From assembly GCA_964357805.1 (NCBI GenBank), contig CAYHMS010000005.1:1-32567 (forward strand): a stretch of 32,567 nt of DNA, in the 5' to 3' direction. Shown here piece after piece: positions 4,966-30,889 of the stretch. The notes beneath the pieces were generated by a model. That model was not told the DNA's origin, did not search any database, and saw only the letters and a program-made list of their open reading frames with translations. Positions within the stretch are counted from its first letter, which is position 1. Each line of letters opens with the position of its first letter. The DNA comes from an uncultured Candidatus Saccharibacteria bacterium (GTDB taxonomy: Bacteria > Patescibacteriota > Minisyncoccia > Phycocordibacterales > Phycocordibacteraceae). A program made the position numbers and the translations under genes.

Positions 4966-5330
4966 AACTGAATCGTGTCGCCGGCGTTCAGATAGACATA
5001 CGCCTTGCGGCGCGCGGCGCGGAAACCAACCCCGCGCTTGGTGCGCATCGCCTTCGGCTTCCCCGGAAGATTCACGATGCGAATTTTCTTTGGGGCGACA
5101 TTATAGAGCCCCTTGATGGCGCTCGCGATGGTAGCTTTTGTCGCGCGCGTAGAGACATCAAAAGTGTAAACGCCTTTCTCGGTTGCGATGAGGGCCTTCT
5201 CGGAGAACCACGGCGCGCGAATGACCTCGTGGGCTACTCCGCTCGGAAGCTTCGAAGTCCGCGCGCGATGCTTTCGGGCTCCTGCCTTCTGCTCCTGCTT
5301 GCTACTCACTTTTTTGCCGAAGAGTGCCAT
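4959..5330 (-). CDS. rplW: 50S ribosomal protein L23 with N-terminal extension
   Basis: P..SEKA..YTFDV..ATKATI..AI..LYNV..KAYVYL..GDTI. Confidence 0.95.
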   Translation of the reverse strand: MALFGKKVSSKQEQKAGARKHRARTSKLPSGVAHEVIRAPWFSEKALIATEKGVYTFDVSTRATKATIASAIKGLYNVAPKKIRIVNLPGKPKAMRTKRGVGFRAARRKAYVYLNAGDTIQFA

Positions 5331-6006: not shown

Positions 6007-6639
6007 TTATTTGCTTACCACTTCCAACAGCGTGCCGCGACGGCCCGGCACGGCGCCGCTGACGATAATCTTACCTGTTTTTGCGTCAACGACGAGCACT
6101 TTCAGGTTTGTCACCGTCACACGGTCTGTGCCAAGACGGCCGGCCATCTTCATACCCTTGGCGACACGGCCTCCCGCGCGCCCGCCCGAGCCGCCGATAG
6201 AGCCCGGGGAGCGCTCGGTGTGCTTCTGACCGTGCGTGCGCGGGCCGCCATGGAAGCCGTGGCGCTTCACGACTCCCGAAAAGCCCTTGCCCTTTGACAA
6301 ACCTGAAACCTGCACGACATCGCCGACAGCAAAAATATCTGCGCTGATTGTATTTCCGACTGCTTGCTGCTCCTGCTCACTGCCTCCTTCAGGCAATCTA
6401 AATTCTTTGATTGCCTGGAATCCCTTCCCCTTCGTATGGCCGAGAACTGCTTTGCTGATATTCTTGGTGCGGCGAACGCCGACACCAACCTGAATAGCGG
6501 AGTATGCATCCTTGCCCTCCTTCGTCTTCACCTGCGTCACTGTGACCGGGTCAGCCGCGAGAATGGTCCCCGCGTGCGCGAGACCGTCCGCCGTAAAGAT
6601 ACGGGTCATCTTTTCTTTCTTAGCGAGAATAAATTTCAT
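6007..6639 (-). CDS. rplC: 50S ribosomal protein L3
   Basis: Start at ATG 6639 (MKFILAKKEKMT); SKGKGFSGVVKRHGF..GSIG..KGMKMAGR..GAVPG. Confidence 0.97.
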   Translation of the reverse strand: MKFILAKKEKMTRIFTADGLAHAGTILAADPVTVTQVKTKEGKDAYSAIQVGVGVRRTKNISKAVLGHTKGKGFQAIKEFRLPEGGSEQEQQAVGNTISADIFAVGDVVQVSGLSKGKGFSGVVKRHGFHGGPRTHGQKHTERSPGSIGGSGGRAGGRVAKGMKMAGRLGTDRVTVTNLKVLVVDAKTGKIIVSGAVPGRRGTLLEVVSK

Positions 6640-14310: not shown

Positions 14311-14341
14311 TTATAAAACCCGCAAGTTGCGGGATGCAGAT

Positions 14342-14370
14342 ACTATATATAAAGATGTATAAGAACGCAA
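14342..14370 (-). promoter_or_regulatory. str operon promoter
   Basis: TTGCGT-17 nt-TATAGT. Confidence 0.7.
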
Positions 14371-14381
14371 CTCGCGGGTTT

Positions 14382-14410
14382 AGGAGCAGGAGGCAGGAGC
14401 AGTAAGCAGG
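14382..14410. repeat. GCAGNNN-type 6/7-mer array, left arm
   Basis: aggagcaggaggcaggagcagtaagcagg directly abutting the four-helix-bundle stop codon. Confidence 0.85.
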
Positions 14411-14764
14411 TTAATCCCTAAGAACACGAGAAAGACCATACAACATACGACCGATCTCTTCAGTAAGTTCAAGTGTTTTCCCATATGCAAAACGCGGATA
14501 TACGCTCTGTGCGAGCAAGATTTGTGTCTCCAGTTCGGAAAGAGACCCGTGGGCAATAGAAACAAAATGTGCGTAATCCTTCTTGGAACCACGACGGTAT
14601 CCCTCTGCAATGTTTGAGGGAATTGAAACAGCCGCCCTTTTCATTTGGTCACAAAGACCGAACTGTTCTTTCTGTGGAAACTTTTCAGTTAACGCGTAAA
14701 TCTCGCGCGCAAGTTCCATGGCTTTTTGCCAAACTGACAGTGATTGATATCCTTTCGTTTGCAT
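14411..14764 (-). CDS. four-helix-bundle protein (23S rRNA IVP / Avd-like family)
   Basis: Start ATG 14764; L.VWQKAM.L..EIY.LT.KFP..E.FGL.DQMKRAAVSIPSNIAEG..A.GSLSELETQ. Confidence 0.92.
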   Translation of the reverse strand: MQTKGYQSLSVWQKAMELAREIYALTEKFPQKEQFGLCDQMKRAAVSIPSNIAEGYRRGSKKDYAHFVSIAHGSLSELETQILLAQSVYPRFAYGKTLELTEEIGRMLYGLSRVLRD

Positions 14765-14770
14765 ACTGTT

Positions 14771-14804
14771 TCCTGCCTCCTGCTCCTGCTTACTGCTCAC
14801 TACT
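14771..14804. repeat. GCAGNNN-type array, right arm (inverted)
   Basis: tcctgcctcctgctcctgcttactgctcactact. Confidence 0.85.
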
Positions 14805-15555
14805 ATTCTATAGGCTCTCTATAGGGGTCGGCTGAATAAACCTTGAGCGGAGGTGGGGCAACGAGTACGGGGGGAGAAACGGGTTTCGGCGGTGTTGGAG
14901 GGGGAATAATGGGAGGTTTTGGCGTAAGTGGCGGATGCAGTATCGCACCTGGGAGATTCTGGGGCGGCGGTACTGTTTTTCTAAATTCAATATGGGGCTC
15001 TTCATGGTCCTCAAGCAGTTTTTCGCCAGTGACCGATGCTAAAACATTTCTCAAATCAGAACGTTGGACTGACACCGTGCCCTTCGTAGTCGGCGAGCTT
15101 GCCGACGAAGTAGGGGGACGCGTGATTGGTATCTTATTTTCCAAATGAAAATAGCTCGGCGACTGCGGGGGCGGTCCTACTACGCCAGGGGCTACAGAAG
15201 GACGCGGCCCCACCACACCCGTCGGTGGCGGCGCTTTTTTCATCTCCTCTCGCAACGGCACAAAGATTTGTGTATTCACCTCCTGTACGATGCTGTCGAG
15301 AGTTTGTTTATCAAGATTTGCTTCTTCTACGAGCGATTGAACGAACTCTGTAGAATCTTTGAGTCCAAGTAGAAGCAGAATGAGCTCACGCTCTACAACT
15401 GCCGCCTGGTCGATATGCAGCCGATTCTTCTGCATGAGATTCTTTGCGACAGTTTCCAGTTTACCGTTTGTAAAAACAGCACGTACCGGCGGCGGTACTT
15501 CTTTGAGCAATTCTTTTATATCGCTCTCGAGTGTTGAATCAAAAGGTGTGTCCAT
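14803..15555 (-). CDS. Parcubacteria-type hypothetical protein, Pro-rich linker, C-terminal DPYREP motif
   Basis: Helical N-domain (LHIDQ..E..L.LLGL), ends YSADPYREPIE. Confidence 0.8.
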   Translation of the reverse strand: MDTPFDSTLESDIKELLKEVPPPVRAVFTNGKLETVAKNLMQKNRLHIDQAAVVERELILLLLGLKDSTEFVQSLVEEANLDKQTLDSIVQEVNTQIFVPLREEMKKAPPPTGVVGPRPSVAPGVVGPPPQSPSYFHLENKIPITRPPTSSASSPTTKGTVSVQRSDLRNVLASVTGEKLLEDHEEPHIEFRKTVPPPQNLPGAILHPPLTPKPPIIPPPTPPKPVSPPVLVAPPPLKVYSADPYREPIE

Positions 15556-30743: not shown

Positions 30744-30885
30744 GTTAGCAGGAGGCAGAAAGCAGTTAGCAGTATTATGCAAATACTTTCTTCTCCCAAC
30801 TTGTTAAATTTATTAAAATTCTACGGCAAAGCCGTATCTGCAGTATAGCATTCCTGCCTACTGCTTCTGCTCACTGCTTACTACT
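30744..30885. repeat. inverted pair of GCAGNNN arrays with ~75-bp spacer
   Basis: gttagcaggaggcagaaagcagttagcagta ... ttcctgcctactgcttctgctcactgcttactact. Confidence 0.8.
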
Positions 30886-30889
30886 TTTA

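Follow-up and report, generated by a model that had tools for sequence, protein, structure and literature searches.

PF05635 genes bracketed by inverted tandem-repeat arrays: a cassette ahead of rpsL in a Saccharibacteria genome and its counterparts across the family

Introduction

PF05635 is a large protein family for which two crystal structures are available and which, to our knowledge, has been without known function since the 1990s. Its members are known mainly as open reading frames (ORFs) within rRNA intervening sequences (IVS); the rRNA IVS of Leptospira reportedly carry a PF05635 or 'S23p' ORF. Inverted repeats around a gene are also found with RAYT, an HUH/Y1 transposase encoded by a single-copy gene whose flanking inverted repeats are dispersed in addition as short doublets, and heptameric simple-sequence repeats include the STRR of cyanobacteria. 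Here, we describe a PF05635 gene bracketed by inverted tandem arrays of a GCAG-containing unit in a 32,567-nt stretch of DNA (the window; positions 1 to 32,567 of contig CAYHMS010000005.1, assembly GCA_964357805.1) from an uncultured Candidatus Saccharibacteria bacterium, where the gene and its arrays lie between a gene encoding a 250-aa protein and rpsL.

In the IVS of Coxiella burnetii, the loop of a 28-bp terminal stem holds an ORF of this family, and RNase III has been shown experimentally to cut within that stem, thereby removing the Shine-Dalgarno region (PMC4990558). The family has also been noted in rRNA insertions of the candidate phyla radiation (CPR; PMC11270868) and as scattered in cas loci (PMC3936711); the passages concerned do not mention flanking repeats.

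Heptamer repeats have been described separately. GGGAATC heptamers form 70-75 convergent pairs per Xanthomonas genome (Rehm et al. 2015, PMC4692102) and are read there as quadruplex formers, with GGGGA(C/T)T as the repeat of Nostoc. TAACTGA repeats occur in Beggiatoaceae, cyanobacteria, and Bacteroidetes; those of Beggiatoaceae end 1 nt before start codons and contain stops in all frames (PMC4679880). The two papers interpret these repeats as G-quadruplex formers or translational signals; heptamer repeats are described as over-represented in bacteria and have been put down to polymerase slippage (PMC4692102, PMC4679880). In a term search, neither text mentioned PF05635, S23, or four-helix proteins, and literature searches of openly accessible papers found no publication linking PF05635 to heptamer arrays.

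Results

Anatomy of the cassette

The PF05635 gene of the window and its own pair of inverted tandem-repeat arms are one unit. The ORF (14411-14764; ATG at 14764, TAA at 14413-14411) comprises 117 codons plus the stop and lies on the minus strand, as do its arms, the 250-aa gene, the spacer ahead of rpsL, and the rpsO-NYN, uL23, and uL3 arrays described below. The 5′ arm (14771-14798) is a purine-rich GCAG array of approximately four units of 6 or 7 nt; the 3′ arm (14382-14410) is a pyrimidine-rich CTGC array that corresponds to the reverse-complemented 5′ arm with its segments cyclically permuted. The 5′ arm was separated from the ATG by 6 nt (AACAGT), and the 3′ arm abutted the TAA with no gap (14410 is the first base after the stop), which agrees with the placement given in an earlier interpretation of the letters alone (the sequence-only reading). 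That reading had called the arms heptamer arrays. The inverted GCAG arrays are real, but their units alternate between 6 and 7 nt, which appears as a 13-nt direct repeat within the arm, and the window arms are not strictly heptameric. The Shine-Dalgarno-like bases (AGGA/GGAGG) were part of the 5′ arm.

On its upstream side, the insertion site is bordered by the gene for the 250-aa protein (14803-15555; C-terminus ...DPYREPIE*), with the 5′ arm starting 4 nt beyond its stop codon (TAG, 14803-14805). Because the arm begins so close to the upstream stop, there is no room for a promoter belonging to the PF05635 gene, which is therefore probably transcribed by read-through from upstream. Downstream, the order is 3′ arm, approximately 70 nt of spacer, rpsL, rpsG, and fusA; in this genome, the essential translation operon rpsL-rpsG-fusA thus directly follows the insert. 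The spacer ahead of rpsL (14311-14381) is native sequence outside the insert and contains a conserved promoter-like segment, a leader hairpin (14319-14333), and a U-run.

Three pairings of the arms were found by repeat search: 14382-14398 with 14771-14787 (17 nt, 100% complementary), 14397-14410 with 14785-14798 (14 nt, 100%), and, in register, 14384-14410 with 14772-14798 (27 nt, 85%). The first two (17/17 and 14/14) are the perfect 17-bp stem and the alternative 14-bp register expected from the sequence-only reading. They are cyclic permutations of each other (A-B...A′-B′) and hence alternatives that cannot nest. The 17-mer with up to 3 mismatches occurred 5 times in the window (0.06 expected from shuffles), and the 14-mer with up to 2 mismatches occurred 9 times (0.12 expected). 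When the region 14372-14812 (minus strand, 441 nt) was folded as RNA, the 17-bp long-range stem was present in both the minimum free energy (MFE) and the centroid structures (z = -3.04; 0/100 shuffles folded equally well). No Rfam family matched anywhere in the window, and PADLOC found no match to a defence system.

The 117-aa protein matched PF05635 (E = 4.9e-37, 126.8 bits, cut-off 33.8) and TIGR02436 (122.8 bits, cut-off 24) well above the respective cut-offs, whereas its scores with the bAvd profile (33.3 bits, cut-off 40) and with the NCBIfam profile DivGenRetAVD (33 bits, cut-off 80) were under the cut-off, in the latter case far under it. The motif QxxRxxxSxxxNxxEG was intact, and Q40, R43, N51, E54, and G55 were invariant across 15 aligned relatives. 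The family motif has been given as GxxRxxxSxxxNxxE (PMC3936711), with G at the first position, vs. Q in the window protein. The AlphaFold model (pLDDT 94.8) contained four helices. The nearest solved structure was XCC0516 (2GSC; TM-score 0.86, 45% identity, profile match E = 5.9e-37), followed by BT_0352 (2RLD; TM-score 0.83) and by Avd of a diversity-generating retroelement (DGR; 8UB8 chain C, TM-score 0.79), which in 8UB8 is part of an RNA-protein complex. The solved relatives crystallise as five chains. The gene had been taken for a four-helix-bundle member of the IVS family related to Avd, and the profile and fold comparisons confirm this.

Although the window protein shares its fold with DGR Avd and shows weak profile similarity to it, the window locus contains no reverse transcriptase and no template or variable repeats. 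Membership in a DGR was rejected: RVT_1 hits in this genome (G000) lay only on contigs C7, C8, and C22, none on the window contig, and the Avd score was below its cut-off. Elsewhere in the same genome (C22:4218-5409, L002), a weak PF05635-like gene (21.7 bits) with no flanking arrays was found beside a reverse-transcriptase gene. This gene is probably the real DGR Avd of the genome and distinct from the cassette gene. Similarly weak PF05635 hits that look like the same case were seen in G005, G010, and G014.

The bracket across the PF05635 family

To 23 loci from 61 related genomes we added the best 80 of 602 hits in GTDB species genomes, which span Planctomycetota, Acidobacteriota, Bacteroidota, Proteobacteria, Clostridia, CPR, and other groups. 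Four of these 103 loci were dropped for short flanks or N, leaving 99 usable loci. At 92 of the 99 loci, TRF detected a tandem array no more than 150 nt from the gene; 78 loci had an upstream array, 70 a downstream array, and 56 both. Of these arrays, 65 of the 78 upstream and 59 of the 70 downstream ones had a period of 7 or 14; in control windows 400-700 nt away these periods were found in 18/384, and periods of 6, 9, and 12 dominated.

The two flanks of a locus matched each other in inverted orientation. When the upstream flank was aligned with the reverse-complemented downstream flank, 72/99 loci scored above the 95th percentile of 990 non-cognate pairs and 56/99 above the 99th, whereas flank pairs in direct orientation exceeded the 95th percentile in 5/99. 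Exact inverted matches of at least 12 nt were present in 41/99 cognate vs. 2/495 non-cognate pairs. Twenty-nine loci had period-7 arrays on both sides, with 24 distinct heptamer types; in 23 of these 29 loci, the 5′ unit and the reverse-complemented 3′ unit agreed at no fewer than 6 of 7 positions, compared with 14 of 812 non-cognate pairs. RNAduplex energy separated cognate from non-cognate pairs poorly (38/100 cognate pairs under the 5th percentile), with pairing also possible between a G-rich and a C-rich arm from different loci, and alignment-based measures were used instead.

Array size and placement were similar among loci. The median was 4.3 units, and 40 of 96 arrays had 4-5 units. The median gap between the upstream stop codon and the 5′ array was 1.5 nt (50/65 arrays with a scorable upstream ORF), and the median gap between the stop codon of the PF05635 ORF and the 3′ array was 6 nt. 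G exceeded C in 60 of 78 upstream arms, and C exceeded G in 55 of 70 downstream arms. Neighbouring genes were mostly co-oriented with the PF05635 gene (upstream 79/99, downstream 72/99). One cassette with heptamer arms (L015, G053:C1) lies inside a small-subunit (SSU) rRNA gene (RF00177, 549 bits). Thus, nearly every PF05635 gene, in rRNA or between protein genes, sits inside inverted arrays of approximately four heptamers. This bracket is a family-wide feature for which the searched literature yielded no description.

The SSU match of L015 is 1488 nt long including the cassette of approximately 430 nt, yet it covers model positions 1-1533. Either this rRNA has large deletions or further insertions interrupt the match.

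Filled and empty sites

The sequence-only reading had suggested a comparative search for filled and empty sites, and both were found in the genus. The upstream 250-aa protein was searched in 61 genomes of the genus (that of the window included), and the 30 best loci were compared. In 15 of the 30, the stop codon of the 250-aa gene is followed by rpsL within approximately 65-250 nt, with neither a PF05635 gene nor arrays, and the spacers of these empty sites are homologous to 14311-14381 of the window (promoter-like segment, leader hairpin, and U-run). The window was the only one of the 30 loci with a cassette at this rpsL-type junction. At three other loci (L165, L167, L170), a PrgI-like gene instead of rpsL follows the 250-aa gene; L013 carries a cassette at this site, which is empty in the three. 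Across the genus, PF05635 has a patchy distribution (10/36 genomes). Given the 15 empty loci and this patchy distribution, gene and arms therefore come and go together. The cassette is inserted, or retained only here, in the interval that separates the stop codon of the 250-aa gene from the rpsL promoter/leader. Among the 23 cassettes of related genomes, six follow a counterpart of the 250-aa gene and belong to five families (f1, f4, f10, f16, f18), which suggests that the insertion is old or that the site is a preferred one.

Contigs of four metagenome DNA runs showed no inversion or deletion joints and no indels at the arms, although contigs hide rare variants. A frequent invertible switch was rejected: the polarity of the arms is consistent relative to the ORF, and no strand-changing joints were seen in these contigs.

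Other small inserts were noted at this site. A different small ORF occupies the same junction before rpsL in L152, L154, L157, L158, and L173; it has its own extended -10-like box and a coiled-coil look and starts with MLTKEDKNW... or similar. The spacer before rpsL appears to be a hot spot for small inserts. Within the spacer of the window, a 16-nt inverted repeat (14316-14331 and 14366-14381, 94%) surrounds the promoter-like segment. Its downstream half is the conserved leader hairpin with the U-run and ends 8 nt before the ATG of rpsL; its upstream half adjoins the 3′ arm of the cassette and has no counterpart in the empty-site relatives. A promoter scan did not flag the conserved segment, which we call promoter-like on the basis of its conservation and our reading of its hexamers.

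Relation to published heptamer repeats

PF05635 was present in 31 of 61 Xanthomonadaceae genomes. In 13 of 29 loci of this group, the gene lies between accB and accC and is bracketed by arrays of the GGGAATC, GGGATTC, or GTGATTC type (judged by eye). At least 10 four-unit GGGNNNC arrays were counted in 22 of the 31 genomes with PF05635 and in 6 of the 30 genomes without it (Fisher P = 9e-5; a single array type was counted, and related genomes are not independent). The arrays bracketing PF05635 include the published GGGAATC repeats of Xanthomonas. Like these, the window arms consist of tandem units of approximately 7 nt in few copies. The published repeats frequently form convergent pairs, are mostly intergenic, are oriented with genes, and often end just before a start codon; unlike them, the window units alternate between 6 and 7 nt with a 13-nt super-period. 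The TAACTGA repeats of the Beggiatoaceae type resemble solo arrays, which we also found (see below). In one Xanthomonadaceae genome (G128), the reversed control pattern (CNNNGGG ×4) gave 81 hits vs. 5 for the forward pattern, which suggests that a different type of heptamer array is abundant there.

Same-type arrays without the gene

The genome of the window contains nine GCAG-type arrays, seven of them on this 32.6-kb contig. The arrays that the sequence-only reading had listed at uL3, uL23, and rpsO-NYN are all real. Between rpsO and the NYN-domain gene they form a bracket without a PF05635 gene: a GCAG-type 5′ arm directly after the rpsO stop codons (30854-30886) and a CTGC-type 3′ arm ending 7 nt before the ATG of the NYN-domain gene (30748-30774). 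Two further arrays are solo and in frame: one (…SSKQEQKAG…, 5280-5307) in the lysine-rich N-terminal extension of uL23, and one (…GSEQEQQA…, 6360-6383) as an insertion of 7-8 aa in a variable loop of uL3.

The interior of the rpsO-NYN bracket is a native spacer of approximately 80 nt with an extended -10-like box and a hairpin. The core of this spacer was found in all 29 genus loci compared, and arrays surround it in 9 of the 29 (identified by eye; the same nine rank highest by computed score). At least four array types occur at this site: GCAG in the genome of the window, TAGGCGC in G023, G001, and G081, GTAGGGG in G013, G014, G005, and G078, and a CAGCCG-like type in G002. In G023, as in the genome of the window, the arms of the cassette (L008) are of the same type as those of its own rpsO-NYN bracket. 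The rpsO-NYN arrays are kept in G005, G013, and G014, in which no PF05635 hit exceeded the cut-off. Four loci (L118, L121, L122, L136) share an element of approximately 150 nt with internal inverted repeats after rpsO. This element has no relation to the heptamer arrays and may represent a miniature mobile element or a small structured RNA.

Within the genus, the uL3 array is common only to G029, and the uL23 array to G030 and G013; no PF05635 gene was found in any of these three genomes. The uL23 stretch is identical to the 5′ arm of the cassette at 20 of 21 bases (own count), which by a rough estimate is too close a match for chance in a 645-kb genome, so the arrays are related. From their sequences, we regard the uL3 and uL23 arrays as relatives of the cassette arm but not as evidence of a regulon. 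The uL3 loop (6300-6420; L180-L209) is a variable insertion site, where other insertions of 6-13 aa occur (for example, L194, L201, L196, and L199). Outside the window, GCAG/CTGC-type arrays of the same genome lie at C1:46155-46179, C59:1527-1543, and C20:7384-7401. These three apparently all are coding (an oxidase-like ORF, the C-terminal tail of DnaK, and one other ORF).

Dispersed arrays were also found in distant genomes. In the 7.8-Mb Pirellulaceae genome G085, the heptamer of the cassette L042 occurs at eight loci (0 for the reversed control). Besides the cassette itself, these include two solo C-type arrays immediately ahead of start codons and four gene-less G-to-C brackets. Each of the four brackets lies between an upstream stop and a downstream start codon, and their interiors (75-195 nt) show no relation to one another. 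In G086 (Pseudoxanthomonas wuyuanensis), the GGGGACC pattern gave 109 hits vs. 0 in the control. All 10 brackets fetched from this genome had arms of approximately four units and mutually unrelated interiors of 50-110 nt. One bracket of the same type holds a PF05635 gene, and two further PF05635 genes of G086 have another array type or none. Miniature inverted-repeat transposable elements were considered and rejected, as the interiors of gene-less brackets are unrelated and the rpsO-NYN interior is a native spacer common to array-free relatives.

Discussion

The window locus shares several properties with rRNA IVS: the gene family, the position of the ORF in the loop of complementary termini, the ribosome-binding site in or near the stem, and the sporadic occurrence among relatives, one of which (L015) has a heptamer-armed cassette within a 16S rRNA gene. 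Unlike the rRNA IVS, the window copy lies between protein genes (the 250-aa gene and rpsL), outside 23S and 16S rRNA; its arms are tandem arrays with several pairing registers; and excision by RNase III, which is shown for rRNA elements, would be a prediction for the window cassette.

Our preferred interpretation, which we consider somewhat probable, is that the locus is an IVS-type cassette whose arms pair in the read-through RNA, hide the ribosome-binding site, and offer a substrate to RNase III. As transcription proceeds through the ORF, the 5′ arm would leave its ribosome-binding site free, and translation could start only until the 3′ arm has been made. The completed 3′ arm would then pair with the 5′ arm, either by 17 perfect bp or by 27 bp with two small internal loops, which would loop out the ORF and hide the ribosome-binding site. 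The resulting duplex would be a substrate of the RNase III type; a cut would release the ORF RNA and separate the flanking RNAs, and an rRNA or an operon could thereby tolerate the insert. The genome of the window has a gene for RNase III (TIGR02191, 251.6 bits). For the L015 cassette within 16S rRNA, some such removal is hard to avoid. Read in this way, the element functions as an rRNA IVS does, although its position outside rRNA keeps it from being one. The cassette class is widespread, and we did not find it described in the searchable literature. If the arms act as RNase III sites, they would be a simple natural device for keeping an insert in rRNA or in an operon harmless.

Several observations weigh against the IVS-type interpretation. 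Pairing, cleavage, and translation in this organism are all steps that we infer from sequence. Mismatches between arms showed no excess of sense-strand G·U (113 sense-G·U vs. 130 antisense-G·U, with 264 transversions, in 2803 aligned columns from 76 loci), and duplex energy was no better on the sense strand (47 vs. 53 of 100). With neither a G·U bias nor a sense-strand advantage, the complementarity could stem from copying at the DNA level and not from selection for RNA pairing. In 27/99 loci there was no significant arm complementarity within 150 nt. The filled and empty sites could reflect either gain or repeated loss of the cassette. In addition, arrays of the same type bracket gene-less native spacers (rpsO-NYN, G085, and G086), and solo arrays occur inside coding regions, both of which an excision device for a selfish ORF leaves unexplained. 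The sequence-only reading had offered an IVS-like cassette as one of two possibilities: the anatomy, the filled and empty sites, and the position of L015 inside SSU rRNA fit it, but the arm mismatches, with no G·U bias, give no sign of selection at the RNA level. Its other possibility, a protein-repeat regulon, is no more than possible: same-type arrays do exist elsewhere in the genome, but the uL3 and uL23 copies are coding and common to relatives without PF05635.

A mechanism reminiscent of RAYT and REPIN is possible, and we hold it only tentatively. A homopentameric, Avd-related PF05635 protein that binds nucleic acid would recognise, copy, maintain, or process the arrays as DNA or RNA, for the most part in cis but at times in trans. 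The bracket with the gene would serve as master copy, and the arrays at rpsO-NYN, uL3, and uL23 would be dispersed products or targets. Such a mechanism is compatible with RNA pairing. The likeness to REPIN-RAYT lies in a gene flanked by inverted repeats of a genome-specific type that are dispersed as doublets (G000, G085, and G086). Unlike RAYT, which is an HUH/Y1 transposase, the product of the flanked gene is a small four-helix bundle (PF05635). In addition, the doublets are not mobile units with a conserved interior but surround unrelated native spacers, and the arms are tandem arrays and not single palindromic units. The recurrence of cassette-type arrays within a genome (G000, G023, G085, and G086; reversed-pattern controls approximately zero) argues for a protein that acts on them, as do the seven of nine G000 arrays on one contig (binomial P = 3e-8, linked arrays not being independent), the excess of GGGNNNC arrays in Xanthomonadaceae genomes with PF05635 (22/31 vs. 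6/30), and the rpsO-NYN arrays in 4/5 genus genomes with PF05635 vs. 3/16 without it (P = 0.025). The clustering of arrays at 4-5 units (40/96) beside the five chains of the solved relatives and the presence of Avd in an RNA-protein complex (8UB8) also fit. However, the family is not known to have any binding or catalytic activity, and arrays persist where no PF05635 was found (G005, G013, G014, and 6/30 Xanthomonadaceae genomes), with the uL3 and uL23 arrays common to relatives lacking the gene. One genome (G039) holds three cassettes with three heptamers (L005, L022, and L029), in G001 the cassette arms differ from the rpsO-NYN arms, and proteins 40-50% identical lie between quite different heptamers, so that sequence-specific recognition would need to change quickly. 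The bracket could instead have arisen at the DNA level only, which seems unlikely to us: slippage would make the arrays, template switching or gene conversion between inverted repeats (hairpin or cruciform) would keep the arms alike, and the bracket would have no RNA function, with the PF05635 gene as a frequent passenger. The lack of a sense-strand G·U signature is what this would predict; arms are highly uniform within a genome, with approximately four units each; array types change at orthologous sites with the arms still matched, both at rpsO-NYN in the genus and at accB-accC in Xanthomonadaceae (switches among GGGAATC, GGGATTC, and GTGATTC); and slippage is the cause to which bacterial heptamer repeats have been ascribed (PMC4692102, PMC4679880). 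Slippage alone, however, does not lead one to expect a polarity that follows gene direction (G-rich upstream 60/78, C-rich downstream 55/70), the precise placement of arms at stop and start codons, or the near-universal tie to one gene family across phyla, and the metagenome contigs, in which rare variants are hidden, contained no inversion or deletion joints at the arms.

Improbable, in our judgment, is a role of the arms as a translational insulator or coupler, in which TAG-rich arrays with a period not divisible by three would halt translation in every frame on entering or leaving the insert and the closed stem would set the upstream stop codon beside the downstream start codon, so that the operon tolerates the insert. 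The array periods (7, 14, 8, or 13, vs. 6, 9, and 12 dominating in controls) suit this role, and so do the occurrence of TAG in 27/67 units (11.2 expected; 0/300 shuffles reached that), of a sense-strand stop codon in 39/67 units (29.4 expected), and the arms abutting the upstream stop and, at many loci, the next start codon. The Beggiatoaceae TAACTGA repeats likewise give stops in all frames before starts (PMC4679880). In the window, however, the 3′ arm is followed by approximately 70 nt with the rpsL promoter-like segment and by no start codon, the GCAG arms hold only one stop triplet, and cassettes inside rRNA could not have this role. That an ordinary gene is surrounded by low-complexity sequence through chance deserves next to no credence. 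GCAG-rich strings do also give rise to E/Q/K/A-rich peptides, both in ribosomal proteins and in the tail of DnaK, but the 5 and 9 matches in the window far exceed the shuffle expectation (0.06 and 0.12), and the bracket recurs at 92/99 homologous loci with differing sequences and co-varying arms, by which chance is refuted; the same count speaks against the prospect, raised in the sequence-only reading, that the arrays might not be associated with this gene family in other genomes. The IVS-type interpretation and its alternatives are not mutually exclusive.

The architecture of the IVS, an ORF within complementary termini, is general for PF05635 outside rRNA too, and these termini are tandem heptamer arrays that differ between loci and match within a locus. 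Two unexplained observations, the PF05635 family and the 'orphan' heptamers of Xanthomonas, thereby become one testable problem. A speculative extension, which we would not expect to hold in full, is that PF05635 and the inverted heptamer arrays are a two-part system in many phyla, in which a pentameric, Avd-like protein writes, copies, or acts on the arrays, and these spread to the borders of spacers, after stops and before starts, and occasionally in frame inside genes. If true, this would give the Xanthomonas heptamer repeats, and possibly the cyanobacterial and Beggiatoaceae ones, an origin and a protein partner and would assign a first function to the PF05635 family. A protein acting on the arrays would represent a new kind of repeat-protein partnership.

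One further copy of the arm sequence was seen in the metagenome data. In all four runs, a second contig matches only the 32-nt arm segment 14770-14801, with unrelated flanks on both sides. These flanks share an 8-nt direct repeat beside the array (judged by eye from a loose-end consensus) and are absent from the G000 assembly. The second contig represents either another copy of the array in a different organism or an unassembled region.

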